Positions 13,276 to 64,000 of a stretch of 64,000 bases of DNA are shown piece by piece (the first letter of the stretch is position 1; every line of letters begins with the position of its first letter). Both the position numbers and the translations under genes were made by a program. The notes under the pieces are model-generated. The model saw only the letters and a program-made list of their open reading frames with translations. It made no database searches and was not told where the DNA came from. The stretch is from a bacterium (GTDB taxonomy: Bacteria > Actinomycetota > Acidimicrobiia > Acidimicrobiales > CATQHL01): the NCBI GenBank assembly GCA_026708055.1, contig JAPOVS010000040.1, positions 29,400-93,399 of the forward strand, read 5' to 3'.

Positions 13276-13316
13276 GGAGCCGTCAGATCGCTCGGCATAC
13301 CGGGGTGGAGGTCATG

Positions 13317-13478: not shown

Positions 13479-13577
13479 ATGGGTTCGCTCATCAAGAAGC
13501 GCCGCAAGCGCATGCGCAAGAAGAAGTATCGCAAGATGCGCCGGCGTACCCGCTTCCAGCGCCGCAGGGGCCGCTGA
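13479..13577 (+). CDS. small basic ribosomal protein bS22-like (32 aa; absent from ORF track)
   Basis: ATG 13479 to TGA 13575-13577 encodes [32 protein letters not shown]. This closely matches my recollection of the mycobacterial bS22 sequence [33 protein letters not shown]. Confidence 0.75.
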   Translation: [32 protein letters not shown]

Positions 13578-13585
13578 GCCGCCGT

Positions 13586-14344: not shown

Positions 14345-15204
14345 GACGCGATCCCCGGCGCGTGATCTCCGCCGGCCCCCTGGGTGTCCGTAGCGGCAAT
14401 GGCCGCCGCCAGACACGACCAGTCCGCGACCCCCAGATCCTGGGGTCTGGCGGCAGGATCCACACCGGCGGCGGCGAACGCGGCGGGCGCCACGACGCCC
14501 CGCAGTGACGCCCGCAGCATCTTGCGGCGCTGGCCGAACGCCCGGCGCGCCAAGCGGTACAGATCGTCGATGTTGTCCGCGGCGGGTTCGGGGAGCCGGT
14601 CGATTGCCAGCAGTGCCGAGGAGACCCGCGGGCGGGGCCAGAAGACCGTCGGCGGAACCCGCCCGAGAATCTCGGCGCGCGCCCGGCAGGCGACCTTCAG
14701 CGACGGGAGCCCGTAGGCGCCCCGGCCCGGCCTCGCCGCCAGACGTTCCGCCACCTCCTCCTGGACCATGACCAGCATGCCGGCGATCTGCGGCAGCCCG
14801 TCGAGGATGTCCAGCAGCAGGGGCACAGCGATGTTGTAGGGCAGGTTGGCGACGAGCCTCCAGTGCTCACCGTCGGCCAGACGCGGGGCCCAGGCGTCTG
14901 CATCGGTGGCATCGGCCTGCAGCACCTCGACGGGCCGCCCGGCGCAGACCTCGGCGAGGGCGCCGACGAGACACCCGTCGATCTCGATGGCGAGCACCAC
15001 CGCACCGGCGTCGGCCAGCGCCACGGTCAGCGCGCCACAGCCGGCGCCGATCTCCACGATCCGCTCGCCGGGTGTGACGCCCGCCAGCCGCACGATCCGC
15101 TCGGCCGTGTTCGGATCGATGACGAAATGCTGCCCCAGCGAGCGGCGCGGCCGGATCTCGTGGCGGCGCAGCAGGTCGGCAACCGCGGCGGCGCCGAGCG
15201 TCAC
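14341..15204 (-). CDS. rsmA: 16S rRNA (adenine1518/1519-N6)-dimethyltransferase
   Basis: Contains RRSLGQHFVIDPN, the SAM motif VVEIGAGCGALT, and NLPYNI. I set the start at GTG 15204, just after the rpf-like stop (15219). The track ORF extends to 15474 over the upstream gene. Confidence 0.88.
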   Translation of the reverse strand: MTLGAAAVADLLRRHEIRPRRSLGQHFVIDPNTAERIVRLAGVTPGERIVEIGAGCGALTVALADAGAVVLAIEIDGCLVGALAEVCAGRPVEVLQADATDADAWAPRLADGEHWRLVANLPYNIAVPLLLDILDGLPQIAGMLVMVQEEVAERLAARPGRGAYGLPSLKVACRARAEILGRVPPTVFWPRPRVSSALLAIDRLPEPAADNIDDLYRLARRAFGQRRKMLRASLRGVVAPAAFAAAGVDPAARPQDLGVADWSCLAAAIAATDTQGAGGDHAPGIAS

Positions 15205-15218
15205 CGTGACGGCCTCAT

Positions 15219-16406
15219 TCAGGCACCAGGGCGCAGGTGGCGCCCGCAGATCGGCCACGGTTGGTCGCCACGCTCCTCCCAGAGCCGGTAGGCCATGCGC
15301 GTCTGGTCCTGGGGCGTCGCATGCCACGGCTGCACGCCGGCCAACCGAGGGTAGTTGCGGCTGGCCACGAAATCCCAAGTCGGCTGATCGAATTGGTAGG
15401 CGCCGTAGTAAGGACCGGCGCGGCTGAAGGCCTCGTAGTTGCCGCTGGACTCGCACATGCGCAGTGCCTCCCACTGTTCCTCGGTCGGGAACCCGGGCAC
15501 GTCCGGCGGGATCGCCGGCTGCATGGCCGGGTCGATGTCCAGCGCCGCGAGGTCGGCAACAGAGGTCGTGGCGGTGACGCCCGTCTCGCCGGACTCCTCC
15601 GCTTCGGCGCCAGGAGGCGGGGCCGGGAGGGCCTCGTCATCACCCGGCGCCGGTTCGACGGGCGCGCCCTCGACCTGTCCCTCGTCGGTCGTCGCCACGT
15701 CGGAGGGCTCGCCGGGGTCCGCGGCGGGCGACGGGGAGGCTCCGCCGTCGCCGGTCACGGTCGCGGCGGCCTCGGTCGGCGGATCCCCGGTGAAGACGTG
15801 GCTGCAGGCGGGCCAGCGATCGTGGCCCGACTCGATCCACAGGTAGTACGCCATGCGGTCCTGATCGGCGGAGTCGGCCTCCGACGGCAGGACGCCGACG
15901 AGGTCCGGGTAGCGCTGGGCTGCCAGGCGATCCCATGTCGCCACGGTGAACTGGTAGGCCCCGAAGTACTCACCGGAGGGGTGAACGAACCCGTAGTCGC
16001 CCTGCGACTGGCACTGCCGGAGCCCCTCCCAGACCTCCGCCGCCGGGAAGGTGCGCGCGCCCGACGTGTCGCGCTGAACCGGCGGCTGCGGTGAGGGGGC
16101 AGGCTGCGGCACCGGCTGCGGCGAAGGGGCGGGTTGCGGCTGCGGCACCGGGGGCGTCGCAGGCTGGGGTGGGACCTCCGGGGGCGCGTCAGCCGCGGGA
16201 TCGCCGGCCGCCGGCGTGGCCTCCGCGGCGGCGGAGGGCGCCGCGGCCGCCGCGGTGCCGGGTGTGGGGGGCGCATCGGCGGGCTCGGTGGCATCGGCGC
16301 CACAGGCGGCGCCGAGCACCACCACAGCCGCCACCGCAACCGCGATGCGAGCGCTCATCAGCGGCGACCGGCGGCGCTCTGGGGTCACCGCGGTACACCC
16401 GGTCAT
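15219..16406 (-). CDS. secreted/lipoprotein-like protein with two tandem Rpf-type transglycosylase-like domains
   Basis: The signal/lipobox-like region is MSARIAVAVAAVVVLGAACG (alternative start 16358), followed by Pro-rich linkers. The two domains are WEGLRQCQSQGDYGFVHPSGEYFGAYQF...WPAC and WEALRMCESSGNYEAF..YYGAYQF...WPICG. It occupies the same locus position as mycobacterial rpfB. Confidence 0.8.
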   Translation of the reverse strand: MTGCTAVTPERRRSPLMSARIAVAVAAVVVLGAACGADATEPADAPPTPGTAAAAAPSAAAEATPAAGDPAADAPPEVPPQPATPPVPQPQPAPSPQPVPQPAPSPQPPVQRDTSGARTFPAAEVWEGLRQCQSQGDYGFVHPSGEYFGAYQFTVATWDRLAAQRYPDLVGVLPSEADSADQDRMAYYLWIESGHDRWPACSHVFTGDPPTEAAATVTGDGGASPSPAADPGEPSDVATTDEGQVEGAPVEPAPGDDEALPAPPPGAEAEESGETGVTATTSVADLAALDIDPAMQPAIPPDVPGFPTEEQWEALRMCESSGNYEAFSRAGPYYGAYQFDQPTWDFVASRNYPRLAGVQPWHATPQDQTRMAYRLWEERGDQPWPICGRHLRPGA

Positions 16407-17290: not shown

Positions 17291-18799
17291 TCAGTCGACC
17301 GTCAGGCGGGGGAACAGCGGATCGGCGACGGTGACCGTCAGACCGGCCGGGTACTGGCCCCAGCGCGCCGCCTCGGGCAGCCGCGCCTCCGACGGGTCGC
17401 CGTCCAGCCCGATGCGCCGCCACACCTCGGCGCACGAGCGCGGGATCGCCGGGTGCGCCAGGACGGCCACGATCCGCAGGACCTCCAAGGCGTCGCCGAG
17501 GGTGGCGTCGAGTTCGGGCCCCGGCTCCAGCTTCCACGGTTGGCGATCCTGCAGGTACTCGTTGGTCTCCCGCACCAGGCGCCACGTCTCCTCGAGAGCC
17601 ACCGACGGCTGCACCCTGGCCCACGCCGCCGCGGCCGCCTCGTAGGCCTGCGCCGCCACGGAGGCCAGGGGGCTGTCGGGCGCCGGGGCGCTGCCAGCCG
17701 AGCCGTCGGCACGGGCCACGATGGTGGTGACCCGCTGCAGCAGGTTGCCGAGTCCGTTGGCCAGGTCGCTGTTGCAGCGCTGCACCAGCGCCTCGTAGCT
17801 GAAGTCGCTGTCGGGGCCGAAGGGGTTGTCACGAAGCACCGAGTAGCGCAGACCGTCGACGCCGATGCTGGCCGCCAGGTCGGCCGGCGCGATCTGCACG
17901 ACGCTCGTCTTGGCCATCTTGGCGCCGCGCACGAGCAGCCAGCCGTGCACATGGAACCGCGGCATGGGCTCCACGCCCGCCGCCATCAGCATGGCCGGCC
18001 AGTACACGCAGTGGAAGCGGATGATGTCCTTGCCGAGCAGGTGCCGCACCGCCGGCCACCAGGTGGCGAAGCGGTCCTCGTCGGTGCCGTAGCCGGCCGC
18101 GGTGGCGTAGTTGGTGAGGGCGTCGTACCAGACGTAGAAGACGTGTCGGCGATCCCAGGGCACCGGGATCCCCCACTGCAGCGAGGTGCGGGTGATCGAC
18201 AGGTCCTCCAGTCCGCCCCGCACCAGCGCCCGCGCCTCGTTGCGGTAGCGCTCGGGAGTGATGTTGTCGGGGACGTCCTCGAACCACTCAAGGAGCCGGT
18301 CCCGGAACGCCGAGAGCCGGAAGAAGTAGTTGTCCTCGGACATCTGCTCGACGGGGAACTCGTGGATCGGGCAGTTGCCGTCGACGAGGTCGGCCTCGGC
18401 GTAGTACGCCTCGCAGGACACGCAGTAGGCGCCCTGATAGGTGTCCTTGTAGACGTAGCCGTTCTCGTAGCAGCGCTCCAGCAAGGTCTGTACCGCCGTG
18501 TGGTGGCGCGGCTCGGTGGTGCGGATGAAGTCGTCGTAGGCGATGTCCAGCAGGTCCCACGCCTCCTTGAAGCGCTTGCTGGTGCGGTCGGCCTGCTCCT
18601 GGGGGCTGAGGCCGTTCTGGGTGGCCGCGCGCTGCACCTTCAGGCCGTGCTCGTCGGTGCCGGTGAGGTAGAAGACCTCGTCGCCGTGCATCCGCCGCCA
18701 GCGGGCCAGCGCGTCCCCGTTCAACGTCGTGTAGGCGTGACCCATGTGCGGCACGTCGTTGACGTAGTAGATGGGGGTCGTGTAGAAGTAGCGGCCCAC
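17291..18799 (-). CDS. metG: methionine--tRNA ligase
   Basis: The class I signatures are VPHMGHAYT (HIGH-type) and KMAKT (KMSKS-type). 502 aa. Confidence 0.95.
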   Translation of the reverse strand: MGRYFYTTPIYYVNDVPHMGHAYTTLNGDALARWRRMHGDEVFYLTGTDEHGLKVQRAATQNGLSPQEQADRTSKRFKEAWDLLDIAYDDFIRTTEPRHHTAVQTLLERCYENGYVYKDTYQGAYCVSCEAYYAEADLVDGNCPIHEFPVEQMSEDNYFFRLSAFRDRLLEWFEDVPDNITPERYRNEARALVRGGLEDLSITRTSLQWGIPVPWDRRHVFYVWYDALTNYATAAGYGTDEDRFATWWPAVRHLLGKDIIRFHCVYWPAMLMAAGVEPMPRFHVHGWLLVRGAKMAKTSVVQIAPADLAASIGVDGLRYSVLRDNPFGPDSDFSYEALVQRCNSDLANGLGNLLQRVTTIVARADGSAGSAPAPDSPLASVAAQAYEAAAAAWARVQPSVALEETWRLVRETNEYLQDRQPWKLEPGPELDATLGDALEVLRIVAVLAHPAIPRSCAEVWRRIGLDGDPSEARLPEAARWGQYPAGLTVTVADPLFPRLTVD

Positions 18800-18833
18800 G
18801 CCGTCACGATACCGGCGCCACCCGCAGGGTCTG

Positions 18834-19679
18834 TCAGATCCCCTCGAGTTGGCGGGCCTGCTCGTAGACGTGCCGGCGGCTCACACCCAGGCGGCCGGCG
18901 ACGGCGGAGGTGATGTCGCGAACCGAGGCGTCCGGCGCGGCAGCGCGCGCTTCGGCCACGGCCTCGGCGATGTCCTCGTCGGTGGGCGGGGCGGGCGGCG
19001 GCACTGCCTCGATCACCAGGACGACCTCGCCGCGGATCCCCGCTCCCGCCCAGGCGGCCAGCTCGACGAGGCTGCCCCGCCAGATCTCCTCGTGCAGCTT
19101 GGTGAGCTCGCGCGCCGCCACGACGCGCCGCTGCGACCCGAACGACTCCGCCAGGTCGACCGCGGTGCGGGCGCAGCGGTGGGGCGCCTCGAGCAGCACC
19201 ACGGCCCGCCCCGATGCCGCCAGTTCCGCCAGACGCTCGGCTCGCGCCGCGCCCCGGCGGGGCAGGAATCCCTCGAAGACGAAGCGCCCCGATGCCAGAC
19301 CACTGACCGCCACCGCGGCCAGTGGAGCCGACGGCCCCGGCACGATGGTCACCGTGCAACCGGCGTCGGCCACTGCCCGGACGAGACGCTCGCCGGGATC
19401 GGCGACCGTCGGCGTGCCCGCGTCGGTGACGTAGGCCACCCGCTCCCCCGCCTTGATGCGCGCCGCCAGCTGCGGCGCCGCCACGGCCTCGGTGTGCTCG
19501 TTGACCGTCACGAGTTCCGTCGGCGACACGCCGGCGAGCGACAGCAGGCGGCCGGTGCGCCGCGTGTCTTCGCAGGCGATCACGTCGCAGGCCGTCAATT
19601 CCTCGACGGCCCGCGGCGGCAGGTCTCCCATGTTGCCGATGGGCGTGGCGACCAGCACGAGCGCCGGTCCGCGGGGCAT
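18834..19679 (-). CDS. rsmI: 16S rRNA (cytidine1402-2'-O)-methyltransferase
   Basis: Begins MPRGPALVLVATPIGNMGDLPPRAVEEL...IACEDTRRTGRLL. I trimmed the start from the 516-aa track ORF to ATG 19679. Confidence 0.92.
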   Translation of the reverse strand: MPRGPALVLVATPIGNMGDLPPRAVEELTACDVIACEDTRRTGRLLSLAGVSPTELVTVNEHTEAVAAPQLAARIKAGERVAYVTDAGTPTVADPGERLVRAVADAGCTVTIVPGPSAPLAAVAVSGLASGRFVFEGFLPRRGAARAERLAELAASGRAVVLLEAPHRCARTAVDLAESFGSQRRVVAARELTKLHEEIWRGSLVELAAWAGAGIRGEVVLVIEAVPPPAPPTDEDIAEAVAEARAAAPDASVRDITSAVAGRLGVSRRHVYEQARQLEGI

Positions 19680-19684
19680 CGCGG

Positions 19685-20014
19685 CTACTCCAGCACTTCG
19701 AGGGTGCTGCCGGCGGTGATTCCCCAGCGCTGCAGGTTCCCCGCCTGCGCCTCCACGACGCTGCGCGCCCGCAGGCGCGGTCTGCCCAGCCGCCACGGTC
19801 GCATCGTGACGATCGCCAGCACCTGCCCCTCTGCGTCGCAGTAGGCCACGTCGATGGCGAAGCGCATTCCCAAGGTGTGGACCGAGCGGGTGCGCGGCAG
19901 CCACAGCGCCCCTTCCAGGGCGTCGCGGCCCAGCAGCCCCCGGGCCCGCCGGCGGGCGCTGCTCGCCACCTCCAGAGAGGCGAGCACCTTGTCCCCCGAG
20001 ACGAGCCACGGCAT
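19685..20014 (-). CDS. DUF192 domain protein
   Basis: The sequence ...LEVASSARRRARGLLGRDALEGALWLPRTRSVHTLGMRFAIDVAY...EAQAG is typical of DUF192. Start is ATG 20014, with ATG 20080 as an alternative. Confidence 0.75.
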   Translation of the reverse strand: MPWLVSGDKVLASLEVASSARRRARGLLGRDALEGALWLPRTRSVHTLGMRFAIDVAYCDAEGQVLAIVTMRPWRLGRPRLRARSVVEAQAGNLQRWGITAGSTLEVLE

Positions 20015-20223
20015 CGTTCCAGTCTGCCGGGCCCCGACCCGAGAGCGGTTGCGCCGCTTGCCCGGGGTGCTCTCGAGCATCACCGATGTTCTGCTCCCCC
20101 ATACGCTCGTCCGGGCAGGACCGCGCCACGACCCCGCCCAACGCTGGCCGGCATCCGCCGGGTGCAGCGGATCCGCTCGCGTGTGTCGGTTCCGTGTCAC
20201 AGCCAGGTGATAGAACTACACGC

Positions 20224-21165
20224 ATGCAATCCACGGATGCCGACACCGGCACAACCGCCGCTGCCTCCCGATCCGCTCCCGCAGCGATGCCCGCCGGTGG
20301 CGACGCCTCCGGCGAGGGCGAGACCGGCACCCTCGTACACATCCCGGTACGCCCCAAGCACCTGTCCCCTTCCAGCGCCTCCATGTTCCGGCAATGCCCG
20401 CAGCGCTGGAAGTTCCGCTACGTCGACAAGCTGCCCGACCCTCCCGGTGAGGCGGCACTGGCGGGCACGTTCGCCCACCGCGTGCTCGAGGAACTGCTGG
20501 GGCTCGACGCCACCGAGCGCACGCTGGAGAGCGCCCGTTCGCTCGCCGGCCAGGTATGGACCGAGATGGAGTCGGACAAGGACTTCGCGGCGCTCGAACT
20601 CGACGCCGACGGCGTCCGCAACTTCAAGTGGACCGCTTGGCGGGCGATCGAGGGTCTCTGGGACCTCGAGGACCCCACAACCGTGGACATCGTCGCCACC
20701 GAGACCGAGGTGTCGGTGGAGATCGGGGGGGTCCCGTTCATCGGCTACATCGACAGGGTCGAGGAGGGCGCCGACGGGCTCGTGGTCAGCGACTACAAGT
20801 CCGGGCGGGCTCCGGGCCGGAAGTTCTCCGAGAGCCGCCTCGAGCAGGTGCTGCTCTATGCCGCGGCCCTCACGGAGATCCACGGCGCCCTGCCGGCCCG
20901 GGCACGGCTCATGTACCTGGGCCAGCGGATCGACGAGGCCACCGTCACCGCCGAGACGATCGCCGAGGTGACCCGCCGCCTGGCCGAGACCTGGGAGGAG
21001 CTGCTCGAACGCTCGGCGACCGGCGACTTCCCGCCACAACCCGGACCGCTGTGCGGCTGGTGCGCCTTCGTGCGGCACTGCCCCGAGGGGCTCGCCGAGG
21101 TCGAGCGCCGGCACCTCGCCGGCGCCCTCCGCCCCGACGCCCCCGCCCTCGCCGAGGCCGTCTAG
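20224..21165 (+). CDS. PD-(D/E)XK nuclease, Cas4/AddB-like with an Fe-S cysteine set
   Basis: Contains SASMFRQCPQRWKFRYV, GYIDRVEEGADGLVVSDYKSG (a D..D/ExK-type core) and C-terminal CGWCAFVRHC. Start is ATG 20224, in frame within track ORF 20086..21165. Confidence 0.8.
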   Translation: MQSTDADTGTTAAASRSAPAAMPAGGDASGEGETGTLVHIPVRPKHLSPSSASMFRQCPQRWKFRYVDKLPDPPGEAALAGTFAHRVLEELLGLDATERTLESARSLAGQVWTEMESDKDFAALELDADGVRNFKWTAWRAIEGLWDLEDPTTVDIVATETEVSVEIGGVPFIGYIDRVEEGADGLVVSDYKSGRAPGRKFSESRLEQVLLYAAALTEIHGALPARARLMYLGQRIDEATVTAETIAEVTRRLAETWEELLERSATGDFPPQPGPLCGWCAFVRHCPEGLAEVERRHLAGALRPDAPALAEAV

Positions 21166-55417: not shown

Positions 55418-56890
55418 GTGCCCGAGTCGCTCGACACTCTCGTGCTCGGACAGCGGATCCGGTACGAGCGGCGCCGGAAAGGGCTGACTCTCGCGGCGCT
55501 GGGCGAACTCGTGGGCCGCCCCGCTCCCTATCTCTCGCAACTCGAGAACGGCCGGATCGAGCCGCGCCTGTCGCTGCTGGGTGACCTGGCCGAGGCCCTG
55601 GGGTGCAGCGCGGGCGACCTGCTGAACGGCGAGGCGCCGACCCGACGAGCCGACTTGGAGGTCCGGCTCGCCCGCATCCAGCAGACCGACGCCTACCGAT
55701 CGCTGAGGCTGCCCGAGTTGAAGGCCACGGCCCGGCTCCCCGACGCCGCCCTCGAGCATCTCCTGGCACTGCACGACGCCTGGCGTGACGGCTCAGAGGG
55801 CCGCTCCGCCGCCACCGGAGGCCCCGCGGTGGATCCGGTGCGGCGGGCGAACATCGTGCTGCGGGCGCAGATGCGTGCCCGCGACAACTACTACGGGGAG
55901 ATCGAAGAGGTTGCGAACGCAGTCCTCAGGGCCGCCTCCTACCCCGGTGCCGGCCCGGTGTCCGAGCGCATCCTGCTGGACCTCGCCGATCACCTGGGCT
56001 ACCGGATCGACCGGGTGCGCGACATCCCCCGCTCGACCAGGTCGGTCACCGACCTGCGCCGCCGGGTGATCTACATCCCCCAGCGCGACGAGTTGCCGAC
56101 GCGCGCCGCCCGGTCGGTGGTGCTGTCCACCCTCGGCCATTTCGCGCTCGACCACTCCGACCCCGAGACCATCGAGGACTACCTGCGCCAGCGGGTGGAG
56201 TCCAACTACTTCGCCGGTGCGGTGCTGGCGCCCCAGAGCCCGGCGGTGTCACTGCTTCAGGAGGCCGCCGGCGAGGGCGACATCGCCACCCAGGACCTCA
56301 AGGACGTCTTCTACGTGTCCTACGAGATGGCCGCCCACCGGCTCACGAACCTCGCCACCGAGCATCTCGGAATCCCGATGCACTTCATGCGGGCCGATGA
56401 GGAGGGGCTCATCTCCAAGGCCTACGAGAACGACAACGTGCCGTTCCCGACCGCGCCGGACGGGAGCCTCGAGGGTGTGCGTGTCCCGACCTCGTGGGCG
56501 CCGCGCCAGGTGTTCCACTCCGCCGACACCTACGCCACGTACGCCCAGTACACCGAGACGGACGCCGGCGACTACTTCTGCGTCACCCAGGTGGACACCA
56601 CCCGCGATCACGGCCACACCGTGACCGTCGGCACGACCGCAGCCCATGCCGGGCGCTTCCGGGGCAGCGGCACCGCGCGCCGCATCGTCTCTCCGCAGGC
56701 GACCCGCACCCCCGGCCCCGGCGCCGGCGACGGGCCCCCGAGCGATCGCAGGGTGTGGGCCTCGGCTCGCGACCGCGAGTTCGTTCTGGGCCCGCTGACC
56801 TCGCCCGACGGCGCCCTGGCGCCCTCGCCGGGCGTCTCCATGAGCGAGGTCCACGCCTTCCTGGATCGCCACCGCGGCGACGACAGGTAG
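55418..56890 (+). CDS. XRE-HTH plus ImmA/IrrE-like domain regulator, ScfR/PrpR/RamB type
   Basis: The HTH is LGQRIRYERRRKGLTLAALGELVGRPAPYLSQLENG. It is followed by the long domain typical of short-chain fatty acyl-CoA regulators. It is divergent from the SDR/Hyu operon. Start is GTG 55418. Confidence 0.8.
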   Translation: MPESLDTLVLGQRIRYERRRKGLTLAALGELVGRPAPYLSQLENGRIEPRLSLLGDLAEALGCSAGDLLNGEAPTRRADLEVRLARIQQTDAYRSLRLPELKATARLPDAALEHLLALHDAWRDGSEGRSAATGGPAVDPVRRANIVLRAQMRARDNYYGEIEEVANAVLRAASYPGAGPVSERILLDLADHLGYRIDRVRDIPRSTRSVTDLRRRVIYIPQRDELPTRAARSVVLSTLGHFALDHSDPETIEDYLRQRVESNYFAGAVLAPQSPAVSLLQEAAGEGDIATQDLKDVFYVSYEMAAHRLTNLATEHLGIPMHFMRADEEGLISKAYENDNVPFPTAPDGSLEGVRVPTSWAPRQVFHSADTYATYAQYTETDAGDYFCVTQVDTTRDHGHTVTVGTTAAHAGRFRGSGTARRIVSPQATRTPGPGAGDGPPSDRRVWASARDREFVLGPLTSPDGALAPSPGVSMSEVHAFLDRHRGDDR

Positions 56891-56997: not shown

Positions 56998-58599
56998 TCA
57001 GGGCGCCCCCGCCAGACGCCAGCGGTTGAGCGGACTTCTACGGGACGGCTCGGTCTGTTCGATCTCTCCGGCCTTCTCGAGCCGGCGCAGGTGTTTGAGC
57101 GCTCCCTGCGGGGTCATGGCGAGAGCCTCAGCGAGCGTCCTCGTTGGAAGCGGACCGCCGGTCAACAAGTCCCGGATACGGTCACACGGGTCGGTCGCCG
57201 CTTCGCCACTTGAAGGAGGGGGCGGCATTCTGCCGGTCGCCGACATCTGCGCGCGGCGCCAGGGCTCGGTCTCGTCGCCGTCGGGTTCGGGCTGCGGAAA
57301 ATGCGGGTCCGCGTAGCCCGCAGACCGGATGGTCATCGTCGTCTCACTGATTCGGTCGGCCAGTTCGGGGGCCCCGGTGCCGGCGGCGCGGAGTTCGCGA
57401 GCGATGGCCACAAGCCCCGACCCGCGGTTCTCACAGACCGTGCGGTTCGTGCGAGGGATCTCGACGTCCTCGAGGAGTTTCGCCAGATACGAGTTGCGTG
57501 ACGAGCTCTGCGGCTCGGCGAACAGGCGCGCACGGTTGACGTCGCCGTGGAAACCGCCGGGGTTGGTGACCTCGAGACGGTCGGGGTAGGCCTCGATGCG
57601 TACCTGGGATCCGTGGGCGAGAGGGTGGTAGTCGCGGTGGAGCAGGGCGTTGACGACGATTTCCCGCACCACCTCGTCCGGATACTCCCAGACGTCCTGA
57701 CGGCCTTCACCGGAGACGACTGCCCGTCGCGTGCTGTTCCGTCGCACTGCGGCCTGCACCGCGGCGACCATTACAGGGATCGGGCCGTCGATCGATTCGT
57801 TGTCGAGGAACCGGGTGCCGTCGCCGAATGGGTCGCCGTTGATCGTCGGGAACGCAACGTACGTGACGTTCAGTTGCGGCAGGAACTGCTGCGGGTAGCG
57901 CCCGAGCGACATCAGGCCGGCCAAGGTGACGGAAGGCTCGGGGCCGTCGCCCACGAGGATGCGGAGCATGCGAAGGATCTCTTCGTCGTCAGCGTCTCTC
58001 AGTGCGCGTCCCCGTCGCCTGCGCATGCGAGTGAGCAGCGAGGCGAGCAGATCGTGATCCAAATCCGAACGTCGCGCACCGTCGACGACTGCGACATCGT
58101 CCAGCGGCTGCCCGCGCCCCGTCATCAGCACATGGAATTCATAGGTACTCAGCCGGCGGTCGCCGTCGTGGGTTCGGGTGTACGTTCCACCCTCAAGGCC
58201 GCGGTTCTTGACGTAGCAGGGTTTGCGACCCGCGGGCAGCTCGTCCACCAGCGCTGCCACCACCGGACTGCCGTCGACCTGCGCCATGTCGATGTCGGAG
58301 CGAATCGGCGGCTCGAGGTCTTCGGCGCAGGTCGAGGCGAGGTCATCGGCCAACCTGGCGGCATCCACGGGCACCGGGCGGAAGTCACCGTCGCTCAACC
58401 CCAGGATCACCACACCACCCTGCGTGTTGGCGAAGGCACACACGGAGTTGCGGACCGAACGCGGCAGTCCGCCTGCCGCCGCCTTGATCTCAACGCCGCG
58501 CAGGTCGGTGCCCGCCCCGCGAGCGCGCTGCACCGCTTCGTCAACCCAACCCTGGAGTTCGACGGGCGGACCGTCGCCGAACGCCCTCAAAGGTGTCAT
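56998..58599 (-). CDS. AlbA_2 (Schlafen-like divergent AAA) plus HATPase_c_4 plus C-terminal wHTH putative regulator
   Basis: The AlbA_2 domain is GVEIKAAAGGLPRSVRNSVCAFANTQGGVVILGLSDG. The HATPase_c_4 domain is REIVVNALLHRDYHPLAHGSQVRIEAYPDRLEVTNPGGF. The wHTH is TRTLAEALAMTPQGALKHLRRLEKAGEI. I chose ATG 58599 because the track start 58656 lies inside the repeat boxes. Confidence 0.8.
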   Translation of the reverse strand: MTPLRAFGDGPPVELQGWVDEAVQRARGAGTDLRGVEIKAAAGGLPRSVRNSVCAFANTQGGVVILGLSDGDFRPVPVDAARLADDLASTCAEDLEPPIRSDIDMAQVDGSPVVAALVDELPAGRKPCYVKNRGLEGGTYTRTHDGDRRLSTYEFHVLMTGRGQPLDDVAVVDGARRSDLDHDLLASLLTRMRRRRGRALRDADDEEILRMLRILVGDGPEPSVTLAGLMSLGRYPQQFLPQLNVTYVAFPTINGDPFGDGTRFLDNESIDGPIPVMVAAVQAAVRRNSTRRAVVSGEGRQDVWEYPDEVVREIVVNALLHRDYHPLAHGSQVRIEAYPDRLEVTNPGGFHGDVNRARLFAEPQSSSRNSYLAKLLEDVEIPRTNRTVCENRGSGLVAIARELRAAGTGAPELADRISETTMTIRSAGYADPHFPQPEPDGDETEPWRRAQMSATGRMPPPPSSGEAATDPCDRIRDLLTGGPLPTRTLAEALAMTPQGALKHLRRLEKAGEIEQTEPSRRSPLNRWRLAGAP

Positions 58600-58622
58600 T
58601 CCCACGGGCACAACGTTAGCGG

Positions 58623-58675
58623 GTTGTGAGACTTGAAACTCAGTTGTAAGTCTCACAACTATCGGTTGTGAGACT
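58623..58675. promoter_or_regulatory. three 11-bp boxes (GTTGTGAGACT direct/inverted/direct), a candidate operator
   Basis: Box 1 is 58623-58633 GTTGTGAGACT. Box 2 is 58649-58659 AGTCTCACAAC, its exact reverse complement. Box 3 is 58665-58675 GTTGTGAGACT. They lie 24-76 nt upstream of the regulator ATG, in the divergent spacer. Confidence 0.5.
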
Positions 58676-58955
58676 CAAAACCGGGTCATAAGCCGGTCAC
58701 TGCCCCGCTGGTCGCTCATCTGCACGGCTCAACGCCGGCAATTGCAGCACGGTCGCCTGCCGCAGACAGGCTCGAGGTCTCCCCAAGCCGGTCCAAGAGT
58801 CAAGCCGATGCCGGGACGCGAGCCCGACACGCGGGTTAGGCTTGCTCCCGCTCCGTCGAACCGTCGGCGCCTTGCCAGTGCCGCAGCGCCGCAAGCCGGC
58901 CAAGGCATCAGCCGATCCACGGCGACCACATGATCACGACCCCGACCCCCGTCAG

Positions 58956-59765
58956 ATGACACGACCCGACAACCTCGAGCAGGCCTTCGCCGAGGTGGAG
59001 CGAGAAGCCACCGCGGCTCTCGACTGCACCAAGAAGCTGCAGAGCCTGCTCCGACAACTCCACAAGAGTTCCCGGGAGGGGAACGTGGCCGCACTGAAGC
59101 GAGCGCAGGGCGGGCTCCTCGATGCGGCGACCGAACTGACCGGCGCTATCGCGGGCGCGGCCGACTCCTGGCCGTTCGGCGGCGAGGAGGACGTCGAGTA
59201 TCTCAGGCAGGGCTACGCGGCCGAGTTGCGGCGTGTGGCCGCCGAGCACGACCTCACCATCCACGAGGGCGACGCGCAGCTGATCTGTCATCCCTCGACG
59301 GTGCGAATCCTCCCAGGTGAGCGAGCCGTCCGCATCGACAGGAAGAAGGTCTCGACGATCAGGCCGTCTCACTTGGTCGCGCTGCTCCGGGAGAACCAGA
59401 AGAGGCCCGCCCGCTCCCGCCCCGAGCCGTTCCTGAAAGCACTCCACGATGTGTACACCGAGTTGACACCCAAGCCGCCCCGCGGTGCGGCCGCCCCCGC
59501 AGCCGGCCCCGTGATCCCTCTCGAGCGGATCTACAAACTCCTTGTCTCGCTGCCGGGCAGCCGGCGCGACTACACGCGCACCGATTTCGCTCGGGACATC
59601 TATCAGCTCGAAACCGCCGGCGTCACCGCGACGAAGTCGGGGGCAAGGGTCTCGTTCCCCGCCTCCACCGGCACCCGCGGCCCCAAGGGCCTGTTCACGT
59701 TCGTCGGCCCGGACGGCCGTGAAGTGAAGTACTACGCCATCCGCTTCGCCACGCAGGCCGACTGA
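58956..59765 (+). CDS. hypothetical protein (269 aa), first gene of the island-2 module
   Basis: Begins MTRPDNLEQAFAEVEREATAALDCTKKLQSLLRQLHKSS..., a helical or coiled N-terminus, then ...ICHPSTVRILPGERAVRIDRKKVSTIRPSHLVALL.... There is a TGATG overlap with the next gene. I recognise no domain. Confidence 0.7.
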   Translation: MTRPDNLEQAFAEVEREATAALDCTKKLQSLLRQLHKSSREGNVAALKRAQGGLLDAATELTGAIAGAADSWPFGGEEDVEYLRQGYAAELRRVAAEHDLTIHEGDAQLICHPSTVRILPGERAVRIDRKKVSTIRPSHLVALLRENQKRPARSRPEPFLKALHDVYTELTPKPPRGAAAPAAGPVIPLERIYKLLVSLPGSRRDYTRTDFARDIYQLETAGVTATKSGARVSFPASTGTRGPKGLFTFVGPDGREVKYYAIRFATQAD

Positions 59766-60742
59766 TGGAGAACACGATCGGCCTCCGGCAGTGGTTCGAG
59801 GTCATCGACACTGAGTACCTGTCGACGTTCATCCCCCAAGGCGGCGCCTCGGTCAAGTTCGCCGTCACACCGGAGCACTTGGACCCTGCCCTCTATGGGA
59901 CGATCGAGGCCCGCTGCGCGGCACTGGACCATCTCGTCGTGCGCTTGGACGCGCGGACCATGCGCGCCCACATGCCGCAGGATCTCTTCTTCGAGATGGC
60001 GCGCCAGCTCGACTGGCGGACGCTGGCACGGCGTTCGATTCTTGTACTGGCCTCCCAAGAGGGATATGCGGTGGAGGGAATCGACCCGAAAGCATCTGGG
60101 GTTTACGAGGCGATAGCGGAAGCCAACAATCACTCACCCGGCTCGGTGCGCCAGGATCTCCGGCCCGAGCTACAGCGCCACATCCGCTTCGACGCCGCCA
60201 TGGCCAAGGACTTCCGCGTGTGCATGAGCCATCTCTGTCTGCGGGAGTTCGTCCGCCACGAGTACACCGCACAGCCGTTGTTGGACTGGTTGACCGGTGA
60301 GAACCTACGCATCAGTGCGGTCAAAGATTTCTCCATCGCCGGAGGAATCAACCGCACCACCGCCCGCTATTTCATCGAGTCGTCCCTGCATTGGATCCGC
60401 AAAGCGGGATTCGCAGGCACGGTGGTCCTGTTCGACAATCGCCGGGTCACGCTCTCCCGCAACCCCAAGGACGGGAACCGGTACTACACGAGAGCGATGG
60501 CTCTTGATCATTACGAGTTGCTGAGGGAGTTCGTCGACGGCGTGGACCGTCTGAGCGGCGCTCTCATGCTGGTCGTGACAAGCAAGGAGTTTCTCAACCC
60601 ATCCGAGGAACGCCGATCGCGCGGCTACGGGATCTATCAGGCACTCCGAACCCGCGTCATGGACGACGTGCGTGACTCGAAAAGAGCGAATCCGGTGGCG
60701 TCGCTGGTCGAGCTGTCAGAGGAGATCGACCATGACTCCTGA
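59765..60742 (+). CDS. degenerate P-loop NTPase-fold protein, apparent inactive paralogue of the next gene
   Basis: FIPQGGASVKFAV sits at the Walker A position with the GK[ST] lost. GFAGTVVLFDNRRV sits at the Walker B position (hhhhDN rather than hhhhDE). It is roughly collinear by eye with the 60732 gene (GDFGAGKSHLL ... GWVVLLDEIELV). Confidence 0.7.
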   Translation: MENTIGLRQWFEVIDTEYLSTFIPQGGASVKFAVTPEHLDPALYGTIEARCAALDHLVVRLDARTMRAHMPQDLFFEMARQLDWRTLARRSILVLASQEGYAVEGIDPKASGVYEAIAEANNHSPGSVRQDLRPELQRHIRFDAAMAKDFRVCMSHLCLREFVRHEYTAQPLLDWLTGENLRISAVKDFSIAGGINRTTARYFIESSLHWIRKAGFAGTVVLFDNRRVTLSRNPKDGNRYYTRAMALDHYELLREFVDGVDRLSGALMLVVTSKEFLNPSEERRSRGYGIYQALRTRVMDDVRDSKRANPVASLVELSEEIDHDS

Positions 60743-62210
60743 CGCCGCCGATTACGATCCGCTCGAATGCCGCCGCGCCCTCGAGGCTCTCCGCAGCGGC
60801 GTGCCGAACAGGAACGCCGTGGCGATCCTGGGATGTCACCAGCCCGCGATCCAACGCCGCTTCGATGAGATGCTCACCGCCGCGGCCAGCACGGGCGACT
60901 CCGGCGGCAACGGCGGGGGGATGCTGGTCTCCGGCGACTTCGGTGCGGGAAAGTCCCACCTGCTCGCCCACCTCGAGCACGAGGCGCTGGCTCAGGGGTT
61001 CGTCTGCAGCACCGTGGCGGTCAGCAAGGAGACCCCCCTCTACAACCTGGACAAGGTGTTCAAGTCGGCGGTCGAGAACAGCCGCATGCCCGAACGCCGC
61101 GGGCGATTGATCGAGGAACTGGGGCAGGCGCTCGACACGCGATCCGAGCGGTATTCCGACTTCTTCCGCTGGTCGGACAGCGCCGCAAGCGGTCTCAACC
61201 CGATATTCCCGGCCAGCCTCCTCGTGTACGAACGCTCGGATGACCCCGAGCTGAGTAGGGAGATCGAGGACTTCTGGGCCGGGGATCGACTCCTCAAGTC
61301 AAGAGTCAATGCCGGCCTCAGAGAGATCGGCCAACTCGCGAACTATTCCTTCCGAGCAGCGAAGGCAGCGGAACTACCCCCGCAGCGACTGCAGTTCTTG
61401 GCGCAGCTCATCAGGGCCACGGGCCACAAGGGCTGGGTGGTTCTGCTCGACGAGATCGAACTGGTCGGCCAGTATTCGATCCTGCAGCGGGCAAGATCGT
61501 ATTCCGAGTTGGCCCGCTGGTTCGGACGCGTGGCGGGCCAGTCACACCCGGGACTCGCGGTCGTGGCGACGGTCACCGATGACTTCGCGCTGAAGATCAT
61601 CAGCCCCGACGGCACCAAGAAGGACCGTGACTACGTCGCAGCGAGGCTGGCGAGCCGGTACCAGCACCTGACCGGCCCGGCCGAGACCGGCATGGACACG
61701 CTCGAACGTGGAGCCGTGCCTCTGACCGAACCGAGCGATGACGACGTTGCCGCGACACTCGAGACCCTGCGGCGGCTCTACAGCAGGGCGTACGGCTGGA
61801 ACGCGTCCGACCTGCCGCCGGCGCGCCGCGGCGCCGGCGAGCAGAACCGCATGCGCTACCGGGTGCGGGCCGCGATCAGCGAATGGGATCTCCGTCGGCT
61901 CTACCCCGAGTACAAGCCGGAGATCGTGGAGGAGGAGTTCCGGCACAGTTACGAGGAGGATCCGGACCTGCAACGGGAATCGCCGGCGGGCGAGGAGGGC
62001 GATCCGACGAGAACCGCCGATGACGAGGATACCGTCGACCCGGGCCGCGAGTCGCCGGAGGTCGAGGAGGGCGACACCACGGACAGGGCGGGTCACGGGG
62101 AGAGCATCGAGCCCGGGCGGGAGTCGCTTTCCGAAGCCGACGCCCCCGTGGCCGGTGACTCAACCGCCGGCCCGCCTGCACCCCCCGGCGCAGCGATCGC
62201 TCCCGCCTGA
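60732..62210 (+). CDS. P-loop ATPase of the DUF2791/BrxD-like type with an acidic repetitive tail
   Basis: Contains ECRRALEALRSGVPNRNAV..., Walker A VSGDFGAGKSHLLAHL and Walker B GWVVLLDEIELVG. The C-terminal ~100 aa are acidic, with RESPxxEEGD-like repeats. There is an 11-nt overlap with the preceding gene, and GGAG lies before the ATG. Confidence 0.85.
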   Translation: MTPDAADYDPLECRRALEALRSGVPNRNAVAILGCHQPAIQRRFDEMLTAAASTGDSGGNGGGMLVSGDFGAGKSHLLAHLEHEALAQGFVCSTVAVSKETPLYNLDKVFKSAVENSRMPERRGRLIEELGQALDTRSERYSDFFRWSDSAASGLNPIFPASLLVYERSDDPELSREIEDFWAGDRLLKSRVNAGLREIGQLANYSFRAAKAAELPPQRLQFLAQLIRATGHKGWVVLLDEIELVGQYSILQRARSYSELARWFGRVAGQSHPGLAVVATVTDDFALKIISPDGTKKDRDYVAARLASRYQHLTGPAETGMDTLERGAVPLTEPSDDDVAATLETLRRLYSRAYGWNASDLPPARRGAGEQNRMRYRVRAAISEWDLRRLYPEYKPEIVEEEFRHSYEEDPDLQRESPAGEEGDPTRTADDEDTVDPGRESPEVEEGDTTDRAGHGESIEPGRESLSEADAPVAGDSTAGPPAPPGAAIAPA

Positions 62211-62218
62211 TCTCGGCC

Positions 62219-64000
62219 TTGCCGATCCCCTTCGACAATCCCGGCGAGGTCCCCGCGCCCGCCGATGTCATCGCCTGGATCCGTGTCATTGAGGAACCCG
62301 GCGGCGGAGTGCTCGCCGCGCTGTTCGCGACCTCGGTCGAGGGTGAGCCGTTGGGCTTCTGTTTCACAGGCGTCGGCCTCGGCGGCGAGCGCCACGGGAC
62401 CGTAGACTCTGACGCAGTCCCCTCGGCCCTCAAGATTCTGCTGCGATCCGCGGCGACCTCACCGGCGCTTCTCCTTGGACGGGCCGACGAAGTCCCGACA
62501 GCCCTCCTTGACTCGGTTGCACGGATCCGCGTCCCGTTCTGCCTGTTGGGATCGACCGACCGCCGACACGCCCCCGACGACGTCGCAGCCGACGGTGCCG
62601 GGATCTGGGTAGGGGCGCCGCCGTCGGGCGAAGCCGGCGCAAGACGGCTGCTTGAGACGGTCCTGGCGCCAGCCGACCCGACTGAGCCGCTCGAGCGGGC
62701 CGCCAAGGGTCTGAGCGAGGCGTTCGACGACCCCCAGGTTCGCGCTTTGGCGGCATTGCCTGGACTTGCCGCCGTGGTCAGCCTCCTCCCGGACGCCGAA
62801 GGCCACCAAACCCGCTCGTGGCCAGGGCTCGACGCCGGGCGGCCACTGCCTCACGATCGTGAACGCCGCGACGGCGAACCGGCTCGGGTCGATCCGATCA
62901 CGGGGGCACCGCCGGCGCTGGCGGACCGCCTGTGGGGCATCCTGCGGGCACCTGCGGCACATAGGGGTCACCCTGAGCATCTGGATTGGAGCGGCGACTT
63001 GATGCCTTTCCAGCGGGACGGGGTGGGCGCGCTCATGGCGAACAGCCGCCTGCTGCTGGCCGACGACATGGGGCTCGGCAAGACGGTGCAAGCCATCGCC
63101 GCGATTCGGATCCTGCGCGCCCGCCGCGAACTGGGCCCCTGCCTGGTCGTCGCGCCAGCCAGTGTTCTGGATCAGTGGCGTCGGGAGATCTCCCGCTGGG
63201 CGCCCGAACTCTCCGCCATCATCATCCGGGGCTCGGCTGCCGACCGGGAGTGGCAATGGGCCGCACGACCCGACGTGACCCTCGTCGGGTATGAGAGCCT
63301 GCGAGCCGACTTCGACGGCCAACTGAGCCGACGGGTCTGGGGTCTTGTCGTCGCGGACGAAGCCCAGCGCGTCAAGAACCGGAACGAAACCAGTGACATC
63401 CTCAAACAGTTGCCACGACGCCGCTCCTGGGCCCTGACCGGCACGCCGATCGAGAACGACGAAGAGGAGCTGGCTTCGATCCTGGAGTTCGTCGACCACG
63501 ACGAGCAAGGCGACCGCAGGCAGTACCGGCCCGGCCACGAGTTGCGGGAGCGCCACAGGGAACTGCAACTCCGCCGCAAGAAGGATGACGTCCTGGAGGA
63601 TCTGCCGCCGAAACTGGTGGCGAAGGTTCCCATCGAACTGAACGCCGCGCAGCGCCGGAGCTACGAGGTGGCCGAGCAGGAGGGAATCGTCTACCTGAAG
63701 TCCCTCGGCACCGAGGTGGGCGTCCAGCATGTACTCGAACTCATCACGCGCCTCAAGCAGATCTGCAACGCCGATCCCCGGACCGGCGAGTCGAGCAAGC
63801 TCGCCGACATCAGGGATCGATTGGATCAGCTGGTCGCCCAAGGCCACAAGGCCCTGGTCTTCTCCCAGTACACCGGCGAGGGCTTCGGTGTGGCGTTGGC
63901 GACAAAGTATCTGCGCGGCTTCGCACCGTTGGTCATCTCCGGGGAGGTGGCGCCGGAAGACCGGGCCGGCGTCATCGAACGGTTCAGGACCCGCCCCGAG
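62219..64000 (+). CDS. SNF2-family helicase with a ~260-aa N-terminal extension (3' end beyond the window; absent from the ORF track)
   Basis: The frame is open from 62159 to the window end. Motifs are LLADDMGLGKT (I), VVADEAQRVKN (II), ALTGTPIEN (III) and KALVFSQY (IV). Upstream of ATG 63002 the same frame stays open with coding-like GC3 (DVIAWIRVIEEPGGGVLAALFATSVEGEPLGFCF...). The first canonical starts are TTG 62219 and GTG 62309, so the start is uncertain. Confidence 0.85.
   Translation, partial: MPIPFDNPGEVPAPADVIAWIRVIEEPGGGVLAALFATSVEGEPLGFCFTGVGLGGERHGTVDSDAVPSALKILLRSAATSPALLLGRADEVPTALLDSVARIRVPFCLLGSTDRRHAPDDVAADGAGIWVGAPPSGEAGARRLLETVLAPADPTEPLERAAKGLSEAFDDPQVRALAALPGLAAVVSLLPDAEGHQTRSWPGLDAGRPLPHDRERRDGEPARVDPITGAPPALADRLWGILRAPAAHRGHPEHLDWSGDLMPFQRDGVGALMANSRLLLADDMGLGKTVQAIAAIRILRARRELGPCLVVAPASVLDQWRREISRWAPELSAIIIRGSAADREWQWAARPDVTLVGYESLRADFDGQLSRRVWGLVVADEAQRVKNRNETSDILKQLPRRRSWALTGTPIENDEEELASILEFVDHDEQGDRRQYRPGHELRERHRELQLRRKKDDVLEDLPPKLVAKVPIELNAAQRRSYEVAEQEGIVYLKSLGTEVGVQHVLELITRLKQICNADPRTGESSKLADIRDRLDQLVAQGHKALVFSQYTGEGFGVALATKYLRGFAPLVISGEVAPEDRAGVIERFRTRPE

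Follow-up and report, generated by a model that had tools for sequence, protein, structure and literature searches.

What are the four tightly packed genes at the end of a 64,000-nucleotide stretch of Acidimicrobiales DNA, and what might they do together? The stretch, hereafter the window, comprises positions 29,400 to 93,399 of contig JAPOVS010000040.1 (assembly GCA_026708055.1), and the genes lie on its plus strand from position 58956 to the end. A first-pass annotation, made from the sequence alone, had described them as an orphan protein, an inactive and an active BrxD-like ATPase and an SNF2 helicase, and had proposed that they might constitute an undescribed defence or DNA-surveillance system. 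Our analysis establishes that the four-gene cassette is certainly real, and it is very probably undescribed. On balance we lean towards a defence function, the case for which is set out below against three alternatives. The components are as follows:

58956..59765, plus strand: gene 1, 269 amino acids, with ATG at 58956 and TGA at 59763-59765; an orphan protein and the signature component of the cassette
59765..60742, plus strand: gene 2, 325 amino acids; a PF10923 AAA+ protein with degenerate nucleotide motifs
60732..62210, plus strand: gene 3, 492 amino acids; a BrxD-family AAA+ ATPase with intact Walker A and Walker B
62219..62980, plus strand: N-terminal domain of gene 4, about 255 amino acids; a predicted RNase H-like fold, with a helical sub-domain and a disordered linker after it
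62981..64000, plus strand: SNF2 (Swi2/Snf2) ATPase core of gene 4, cut by the window end; PF00176

The junctions between these genes proved to be as the first-pass annotation had read them. Genes 1 and 2 share a TGATG at 59763-59767, in which the TGA of gene 1 (59763-59765) overlaps the ATG of gene 2 (59765). Genes 2 and 3 overlap by 11 nucleotides (nt) at 60732-60742, from the gene 3 ATG at 60732 to the gene 2 stop at 60740-60742, and the helicase frame opens near the gene 3 stop (62208-62210), at a TTG at 62219 following an 8-nt gap. The window truncates gene 4 312 nt short of its stop; the complete protein has 697 amino acids, and full-length gene 4 is present at three related loci on contigs with an identical gene 2 (L002, L004 and L006; loci are given L numbers throughout). 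Beyond gene 4 lies a branched-chain ABC transporter operon on the opposite strand, followed by an Lhr-type helicase. Because this opposite-strand operon comes next, the module is complete with four genes. The reported lower-GC patch is also there, with a guanine-plus-cytosine (GC) fraction of 0.64 across 59.5-61.5 kb compared with 0.70-0.72 upstream. The overlapping or near-abutting junctions, and the recurrence of the same order in public genomes, confirm that the four genes form one coupled module.

To place the cassette among bacteria, we surveyed one genome per species across 185,579 species, which yielded 125 gene 1 relatives, and compared synteny at the best 80 of these 125 loci. All 80 come from metagenome-assembled genomes (MAGs): 37 from Dehalococcoidia, about 20 from Vicinamibacterales and other Acidobacteriota, nine from Binatia and five from Acidimicrobiia, with the remainder from Caldilineaceae, Alphaproteobacteria and Gammaproteobacteria. 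The order gene 1-gene 2-gene 3 is kept in 78 of the 80; the exceptions, both of them decayed copies, are L040, with gene 1 and a partial gene 2 only, and L083, in which no gene 2 was detected. Gene 4 follows directly 3' of the trio in approximately 63. Clustering of flanking open reading frames (ORFs) revealed no further gene common across phyla. Genes 1, 2 and 3 are thus an obligate, translationally coupled trio present in many phyla. Conservation of the set had been suggested as a question for Actinomycetota; the neighbourhood is in fact conserved over at least five phyla and is not a feature of that phylum. Nor is it a core operon, the 125 matches among 185,579 species genomes being rare and patchy. 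Isolate and sample names hint that many of the MAGs may come from sponges.

Gene 3 is an intact AAA+ ATPase of the origin recognition complex (ORC)/Cdc6 clade, BrxD family. It passes the gathering threshold (22.2) of the Pfam family PF10923 BrxC_BrxD, formerly DUF2791, with 75.8 bits (E = 4.2e-21), and both its Walker A (GDFGAGKSH, K74) and its Walker B (VVLLDEIE, D240/E241) are conserved in 69 homologues, for which the alignment consensus reads GxFGxGKSHLL and LLDExEL. Gene 2 passes the same threshold with 37 bits (E = 2.5e-9), covering only profile positions 166-332, the C-terminal two-fifths. Its motifs are degenerate: in the Walker A-like GGASVKF, K31 is kept and the Mg-binding Ser/Thr is replaced by Phe, and in the Walker B-like VVLFDN, D224 is followed by N225 where the catalytic Glu is expected. 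Since these altered motifs (GGxSxKF, and D then N) are at least 90% conserved in 61 homologues, the degeneracy is a trait of the family and not decay. We predict from these patterns that gene 2 is a non-hydrolysing partner subunit. PF10923 membership, together with the motif patterns in the 69 and 61 homologues, bears out the earlier description of a live and a hydrolysis-dead BrxD-family pair.

The further claim that gene 2 is a paralogue of gene 3 held in part. Their common membership of PF10923 speaks for it, but direct similarity is weak: BLASTP returned no match between the two, and hhalign gave a probability of 8.5%, aligning the Walker B strand only. We therefore set direct paralogy aside, leaving PF10923 membership as the argument for it. 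Both proteins match the PADLOC BrxD model (gene 3, 2.2e-18; gene 2, 3.7e-9), and both fail the cut-off of 350 for the NCBIfam BREX_BrxD equivalog NF033438 (67.5 and 32.1 bits, respectively). Other matches of gene 3 are local, to SngB over residues 64-104 only (E = 2.8e-5; 40 residues around Walker A) and to BrxC models in the Walker A region only (E = 0.003-0.02). The window copy of gene 3, at 492 amino acids, is longer than its homologues, at about 425. Residues ~410-492 form a lineage-specific acidic, proline-rich tail that the homologues lack, and part of this tail, the GRESP...EEGD units, is encoded by a tandem repeat:

61974..62127, plus strand: 72-nt tandem repeat, 2.1 copies; Tandem Repeats Finder score 164

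Motif loss, strict co-occurrence and the 11-nt overlap support a putative gene 2-gene 3 heteromer, and we infer that the two would assemble into a heteromeric AAA+ complex. ORC and clamp-loader AAA+ assemblies contain inactive subunits. Operons of conflict systems, in turn, pair an active with a Walker-B-disrupted Orc/Cdc6 ATPase (PMC10853773). The cassette resembles all of these in placing a conserved, putatively non-hydrolysing subunit beside an active one. It differs from the paired Orc/Cdc6 operons in that these couple to KAP NTPase, STAND, TIR or HerA/FtsK proteins, whereas the cassette couples to gene 1 and an SNF2 helicase; in addition, the dead subunit of its putative heteromer is altered in Walker A as well.

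Gene 4, as first read, is an SNF2 helicase. It matches PF00176 (SNF2-rel_dom) at 8.1e-47 starting from residue 276, with motif I GLGKT (K288) and motif II DEAQ (D380/E381), and 53 homologues conserve helicase motifs I-VI, TGTPxEN and those of the C-lobe among them. Full-length copies also contain Helicase_C, placing the protein in the SNF2 family. Judged by these motifs, all of them intact, gene 4 is an SNF2 double-strand-DNA translocase. Its best PADLOC matches, over the core only, are ZorD (1e-43) and DpdE (1.5e-36); the top matches are all SNF2-type (ZorD, DpdE, DrmD, BrxH), and SngC is not among the 25 matches listed. Every NCBIfam match falls far below its cut-off.

The core is preceded by about 260 amino acids of extra N-terminal region with no ATG, for which the start had been left between codons. 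The N-terminus M-P-I-P-F-D is conserved in 49 gene 4 homologues, aligned at TTG 62219, and across the 22 distinct lineages in which this motif could be placed (within L007-L079, at about 13050-13110) the start codon is TTG in 18, ATG in three and GTG in one. This conservation resolves the start as TTG 62219 and suggests that low translation of the helicase has been selected. The packed junctions had been taken to imply stoichiometric co-expression of all four genes. For gene 4 this is unlikely, since 18 of the 22 lineages share the weak TTG start, which speaks for a deliberately low rate of translation.

By sequence, the N-terminal region matches neither a Pfam family (E<=10) nor any PDB entry searched by profile. 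We modelled residues 1-265 with AlphaFold2, obtaining a mean predicted local distance difference test score (pLDDT) of 72.7, with 85-91 in the core. Secondary-structure elements in the predicted model follow the order b1-b2-b3-a1-b4-a2-b5, which is RNase H-like. Foldseek searches of the PDB matched the C-terminal half of UvrC (2nrt, E = 3.6e-4; 2nrz, E = 5.2e-4), EndoV (4xpu, E = 6.9e-4) and Argonaute PIWI domains (E = 3e-3), each with a probability of ~1.0, and the alignments to UvrC extend into the following helical region. We therefore predict, from the model, that gene 4 carries an N-terminal domain of the UvrC-C/EndoV/PIWI RNase H type fused to its SNF2 motor. A sequence-level tie to UvrC, EndoV or PIWI was considered and dropped, the Pfam and PDB-sequence profile searches being blank. 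Although the predicted fold of the gene 4 domain matches UvrC-C, EndoV and PIWI (Foldseek probability 1.0), the domain differs from them in having no sequence similarity, no Asp in b1 and a fused SNF2 motor. Neither the matches in PADLOC, Pfam and NCBIfam nor the literature searched offered a precedent for a fusion of a UvrC/EndoV/PIWI-like domain with SNF2.

Nucleases of the UvrC-C/EndoV/PIWI group use a catalytic set made up of an Asp in b1, an Asp after b4 and a third Asp, His or Glu. Acidic residues of the gene 4 domain are strongly conserved: E25/E26 at the end of b1 (86-96%), D90 (80%) and E91 (100%, 49/49) after b4, and E156 (100%) and D171 (84%) in later helices. The earlier statement that no nuclease accompanies the module is consequently doubtful for gene 4, given the RNase H-like fold (Foldseek E = 3.6e-4) and these conserved acidic residues. 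The domain may nevertheless be catalytically inactive, because the canonical Asp of strand b1 is absent. Domain and motor also occur apart. In five Dehalococcoidia loci from diverged genomes (L038, L057, L065, L073 and L084; ~13060-15800), gene 4 is split into an N-domain ORF of ~180 amino acids adjoining a helicase ORF of ~540-730 amino acids, and two stand-alone N-domain proteins were found (P0121 and P0122).

Gene 1 defines a protein family of its own. A profile search of 1.84 billion cluster representatives (50% identity) recovered 834 clusters at E<=1e-3, nearly all of them stand-alone proteins of ~260 amino acids; close gene 1 homologues number >686. Identity between phyla is 50-58%, and the homologue alignment shows invariant E90, D106, D128, K130 and Q148 together with a TDFARD motif. 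AlphaFold2 gave a confident model (pLDDT 88) in which a helical hairpin at the N-terminus (residues 7-69) precedes a small beta meander of five strands (residues 103-132) and a helix/strand C-terminal part bearing the invariant TDFARD; E90, D106, D128 and K130 are assigned to the beta meander region. No match was found in Pfam, PADLOC 2.0 or NCBIfam 20.0, nor any consistent Pfam or PADLOC match among 33 family members even at E<=10, and Foldseek returned no significant match to the fold (best E 0.8 in the PDB and 0.014 in BFVD). The first-pass annotation had seen no TerB-like domain in gene 1, and this stands: none of the 33 members matches a TerB family of Pfam at E<=10, the SngA model is matched by one of the 33 (E = 0.01), and no TerB structure appears in the Foldseek output. 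With no TerB-family matches and a lone SngA match of E 0.01, gene 1 is not a TerB protein. The TerB search of the 33 members and the absent fold match led us to reject a TerB/Shango identity.

Could gene 1 instead be the effector of a three-gene system, with the helicase an accessory? At about 16 of the 80 loci, mostly in Vicinamibacterales, gene 4 is missing:

Three-gene loci: L034, L037, L041, L043, L048-L052, L060, L062, L064, L066, L069, L071, L076

Four further loci with independently called genes (L087-L090) likewise contain the trio only, flanked by PIN/MazE and PemK toxin-antitoxin genes. No replacement gene was found downstream of the trio at the three-gene loci. Long plus-strand ORFs past gene 3 in helicase-less loci were considered and rejected as spurious (no Pfam match) or as transposase. 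Several three-gene loci share their flanks with four-gene relatives, which indicates clean loss of the helicase. Within three-gene loci, the ratio of nonsynonymous to synonymous substitution rates (dN/dS) of genes 1-3 is 0.08-0.41, with dS up to ~1, a range matching that of four-gene loci; the trio thus stays under purifying selection without an adjacent helicase. The helicase is therefore dispensable in some lineages. It is conceivable on these grounds, though improbable in our estimation, that the trio is the functional system and gene 1 its effector, either a divergent nuclease using E90/D106/D128-x-K130 or a released toxin, and that the SNF2 protein is a lineage accessory with an inactive RNase H-like sensor, as in short Argonaute systems. 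The invariant acidic and lysine residues in the beta meander of gene 1, the missing b1 Asp in the gene 4 N-domain and the PIWI domains among its fold matches would suit that arrangement. Foldseek, however, assigned gene 1 neither a nuclease nor a toxin fold, confident though the model is; approximately 80% of loci retain gene 4, with all helicase motifs intact; and three-gene genomes may carry a gene 4 copy elsewhere. We had considered gene 1 as a PD-(D/E)xK nuclease specifically, a reading prompted by invariant E90, D106, D128-x-K130 and Q148. No nuclease in the PDB matched and an Mrr-domain match in BFVD was insignificant (E = 0.11, probability 0.28), and we do not claim it.

Comparison of the window with its nearest relatives revealed an unusual pattern of variation within gene 4, concentrated in one patch:

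62519..62779, plus strand: hypervariable, recombined patch; gene 4 codons 101-187, loop and helical sub-domain

L004 is identical to the window, and two loci of the same species (L001 and L002) differ from it by 1.2% over 8 kb. Within a single 250-bp bin fall 56 of the ~100 differences across 56-64 kb. Gene 4 codons 101-187 contain 35 amino-acid changes in 87 codons (dS 0.45, dN 0.25); in the same comparison gene 3 shows a single difference, and both gene 2 and the first 100 codons of gene 4 show none. In gene 1, six of 10 strain differences change residues, all within 31-85. The high dS of the patch implies that a divergent allele of the helical sub-domain was imported by recombination. A diversity-generating retroelement was rejected as its source, as the substitutions show no specificity for adenine and dS reaches the level of dN, a pattern that again points to recombination. 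In two further comparisons (L010 with L011, and L056 with L067), dS is discordant among genes of one cassette, for example 0.02 for genes 1 and 2 and 0.39 for gene 3. Taken at the sequence level, these data indicate frequent recombination inside the cassette.

We then asked whether the set corresponds to any described system. No PADLOC 2.0, NCBIfam 20.0 or Pfam model names it, in agreement with the first-pass annotation, and no description of the four-gene set turned up in the literature on BrxD/SNF2/Cdc6 combinations. PF10923 is named after the ATP-binding proteins BrxC and BrxD of bacteriophage exclusion (BREX) systems. BrxD itself has been classed as an ORC/Cdc6 AAA+ protein and forms a linked dyad with the BrxHI helicase in type 2 BREX; a helicase-loading or helicase-activating role has been proposed for it, and SNF2 helicases occur in type 3 BREX (PMC12839542). 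The BrxD-BrxHI dyad of type 2 Pgl and type 6 BREX, like the cassette, joins a stand-alone PF10923 ATPase to an adjacent superfamily 2 (SF2) helicase gene. The cassette differs from that dyad in lacking PglZ, the PglX methyltransferase, BrxC and PglW, in having an SNF2-type helicase where BrxHI is Ski2-like, and in its live and dead ATPase pair, orphan gene 1 and sub-cut-off BrxD score. Among called genes within 10 kb (L001-L006 and L087-L095), there was no PglZ, PglX, PAPS reductase or BrxC/PglY. The lack of PglZ and of a methyltransferase had already been noted for the visible part of the locus; as it extends to 10 kb, with BrxC missing too, the cassette is not a BREX system.

Shango consists of TerB-like SngA, the SngB ATPase and the SngC DEAD/DEAH helicase (PMC10250203). 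The cassette is similar in encoding a small protein, an ATPase and a helicase in order, with no modification enzyme. It departs from Shango in that gene 1 has no TerB, TerB-N or TerB-C signal (33 members) and no fold match, gene 3 fits BrxD (2.2e-18) over SngB (2.8e-5, 40 residues), and the helicase is an SNF2 protein with an RNase H-like domain, accompanied by a second, inactive ATPase. The absence of a TerB signal from gene 1 sets the cassette apart from Shango, as the earlier reading had anticipated. These comparisons also bear on whether the locus is simply what remains of a BREX or Shango locus, decayed or partial, after the loss of its other genes. Its ATPases match BrxD models, gene 3 weakly matches SngB, and SNF2 helicases are found in type 3 BREX (PMC12839542). 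We regard this explanation as very improbable all the same: across the phyla, 80 loci with unrelated flanks share these four genes and no others, no PglZ, PglX or BrxC occurs within 10 kb of the loci with Pfam-annotated called genes, and gene 1 matches no BREX or Shango component. Moreover, the BrxD equivalog model, with a cut-off of 350, gives 67.5; no TerB was detected in gene 1; and the 116 immediate neighbours have neither PglZ nor TerB among their 25 commonest Pfam families.

Known defence systems include SNF2 helicases fused to nucleases. ZorD, the type 1 BR helicase-restriction endonuclease (helicase-REase), DrmD and DpdE all resemble gene 4 in having an SNF2 core fused to, or working with, a nuclease-type domain. 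In the cassette, by contrast, this domain is N-terminal and RNase H-like and not Mrr or PD-(D/E)xK, and the partners of those effectors (ZorABC, DrmABC with a methyltransferase, DpdA-K, DUF499) are missing. There is no MotAB-like ZorA or ZorB gene, and gene 4 scores 93.6 bits against NF041790, for which the ZorD cut-off is 1500, setting it apart from Zorya. Likewise, DrmA, DrmB and the methyltransferase of DISARM (defence island system associated with restriction-modification) are absent, and gene 4 scores 42.9 bits against DrmD, with a cut-off of 610. The kinds of protein involved, PF10923 ATPases and SNF2, are already known, and such a make-up suits a conflict system of the ATPase-plus-helicase class. 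The novelty lies in the pairing of a live with a dead ATPase, in the orphan protein (gene 1), in the fusion of an RNase H-like domain to SNF2 and in the lack of a modification enzyme.

The interpretation we favour, by a modest degree of confidence, is that the four genes form a self-contained accessory cassette of unnamed type performing nucleoside triphosphate (NTP)-driven surveillance of foreign DNA, that is, anti-phage or anti-plasmid defence. Under this interpretation, genes 2 and 3 would form a hetero-oligomer, with gene 2 as a fixed 'stator' that does not hydrolyse ATP, as in ORC and clamp loaders, and gene 1 would be a family-specific partner that senses or binds the trigger, whether this is a phage protein, a DNA structure or the DNA of an invader. 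Through ATP-dependent remodelling, gene 3 would recruit or load the low-abundance gene 4 motor onto target DNA; the motor would translocate, and its RNase H-like domain would bind, and perhaps nick, the target. As no modification enzyme is present, discrimination between self and non-self would not rest on methylation. And since the trio works without gene 4 in some lineages, it would have an activity of its own, with the helicase as an add-on effector or amplifier. A fuller version, which we put forward tentatively and hold to be possible rather than probable, is a modification-independent immune system of uncultured bacteria, many of them apparently from sponge or soil symbiont lineages, in which an orphan sensor and an ATPase pair load a low-copy motor, the RNase H-fold domain recognises or cuts, a sub-domain exchanged by recombination confers specificity, and the trio is autonomous.

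The defence role is one we infer from several lines of evidence. Gene order is kept in 78 of 80 loci, the junctions are coupled and no other neighbour is conserved across phyla. To these may be added the motif patterns, the predicted RNase H-like fold, the conserved TTG and the strain-variable N-domain patch. Accessory behaviour would be supported by mosaic dS, rarity, low GC, frequent decay or disruption by insertion sequences (IS), and toxin-antitoxin, AAA_15 and transposase neighbours. Copies broken by frameshifts or insertions include L028, L040, L046, L061, L070, L071 (DDE transposase) and L092. In one Dehalococcoidia contig (CBDBNU010000001.1), two copies lie ~430 kb apart (L035 and L040), the second consisting of gene 1 and a truncated gene 2.

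Several observations weigh against defence. The 116 immediate neighbours, from 29 dereplicated loci, are mostly metabolic (PIN 4, AAA_15 2, Uma2 2). Gene 1 has no relatives in plasmid, phage or IMG/VR viral-contig collections; carriage by mobile elements was accordingly rejected. Inheritance is lineage-coherent and partly vertical, with conserved flanks within Vicinamibacterales and Binatia, and all four proteins are 50-60% identical across phyla, which is unusual for an arms-race system. Gene 1 is without recognisable function, the fold call for the gene 4 N-domain comes from a model with a mean pLDDT of 72.7 and template-modelling scores (TM-scores) of only 0.29-0.39, and that domain lacks the canonical Asp in strand b1. 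Any defence-island setting is accordingly weak: low GC and occasional toxin-antitoxin, AAA_15 and transposase neighbours agree with it, and the mostly metabolic neighbourhood does not. The gene 3 phylogeny is mostly lineage-coherent, with a few nearest neighbours crossing phyla. The cassette is a rare accessory unit, with old horizontal spread followed by vertical retention, outside classical defence islands.

Some of these same observations would be expected of an accessory DNA-repair or replication-restart machine. In such a machine, the ATPase pair with gene 1 would serve as damage sensor and loader, the N-domain would incise DNA that is damaged or deaminated, and the SNF2 protein would remove stalled complexes or remodel the site of the lesion. 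The closest folds to the N-domain are repair nucleases (the UvrC 5'-incision domain and EndoV), every cassette gene is under purifying selection, and the housekeeping or metabolic neighbours, high cross-phylum protein conservation, partly vertical inheritance and absence from mobile-element collections all agree with such a role. Together with the trio model, this is the main alternative to defence, but we consider it unlikely. The cassette is found in only ~0.07% of species genomes, scattered over phyla, is often disrupted or reduced, and is low in GC relative to its flanks; a strain-variable, recombined N-domain patch is atypical of repair enzymes; and PF10923 takes its name from BREX BrxC/BrxD. 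To our knowledge, PF10923-type ATPases belong to conflict systems, and we know of none in repair pathways.

The DNA upstream of the cassette contains a candidate regulatory region and two further genes:

58600..58955, no strand assigned: divergent intergenic leader upstream of gene 1, with three copies of the 10-mer GTTGTGAGAC
56998..58656, minus strand: AlbA_2 (Schlafen-type)/HATPase_c_4/C-terminal HTH gene (Pfam)
55418..56890, plus strand: HTH_3 (Xre) and Peptidase_M78 (ImmA/IrrE-type) gene, upstream of the cassette

The copies of GTTGTGAGAC, at 58623-58632 (plus), 58650-58659 (minus) and 58665-58674 (plus), span 52 bp in an operator-like palindrome, and the 10-mer has no further match in the 64-kb window at <=1 mismatch. 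In another Acidimicrobiales MAG (L009), GTTGTGAGAC and a 29-nt block identical to the window are found upstream of gene 1 (9529-9701). About 330 nt of leader can be aligned between the two. Over some 300 nt of it (58675-58955 with 9700-9990) the similarity equals or exceeds that of the coding regions; the gene 1 proteins are only 67% identical. The AlbA_2 gene of L009 sits on the opposite side of the cassette. From its arrangement and conservation, the repeat is probably an operator. The leader matches no Rfam family, and searches for a sigma-70-like promoter or an internal terminator gave nothing of note.

The AlbA_2 regulator reported beside the cassette is present as a minus-strand AlbA_2/HATPase_c_4/HTH gene, which gene callers start at the equivalent of ~58599. 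Its protein matches Argonaute-associated PADLOC models (Aga SIR2-PNTD, pAgo) at ~1e-10. The gene adjoins the cassette in three Acidimicrobiales lineages on differing sides, with a homologue 3' of gene 4 in L007 and L009, and none was found in non-Acidimicrobiales lineages. It is possibly a regulator and lies outside the conserved core. The HTH_3/Peptidase_M78 gene occurs in the window's lineage (L001, 5654-7126) and in L091 (8169-9722; same contig as L007), and both the AlbA_2 and the Xre/Peptidase_M78 companions are limited to Acidimicrobiales loci. The neighbour survey also yielded a few HTH_3, AlbA_2 and Peptidase_M78 genes, the last in three proteins. Some carriers have DDE transposases next to or within the cassette region, namely L091 (3756-5971 and 18497-19612) and L071 (14321-16822); one of those in L091 interrupts the ABC-transporter flank that is intact beside the window's cassette. 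In one Dehalococcoidia carrier (L093/L094), an AAA_15/AAA_21 ATPase lies two genes upstream (6644-8026) and a fusion of ~1724 amino acids, joining a DEAD helicase to a UvrD helicase, lies downstream (17596-20795).

In this cassette, BrxD-type ATPases are found apart from the methyltransferase and PglZ apparatus, and they come with a natural partner that is predicted to be hydrolysis-dead. If the cassette were a repair machine, it would represent a new accessory incision-and-remodelling pathway. If it is a defence system, it would be a new architecture in the ATPase-plus-helicase class, beside BrxD-BrxHI, Shango and ZorD, and would bring in both a new protein family of 834 clusters without a fold relative, gene 1, and an SNF2 motor joined to a UvrC/EndoV/PIWI-like domain. 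It would also offer a compact system for the role of BrxD-type ORC/Cdc6 proteins, which is unsettled even in BREX. Finally, it would mean that lineages known only from metagenomes hold conserved cassettes missed by pipelines built on cultured Proteobacteria and Firmicutes.

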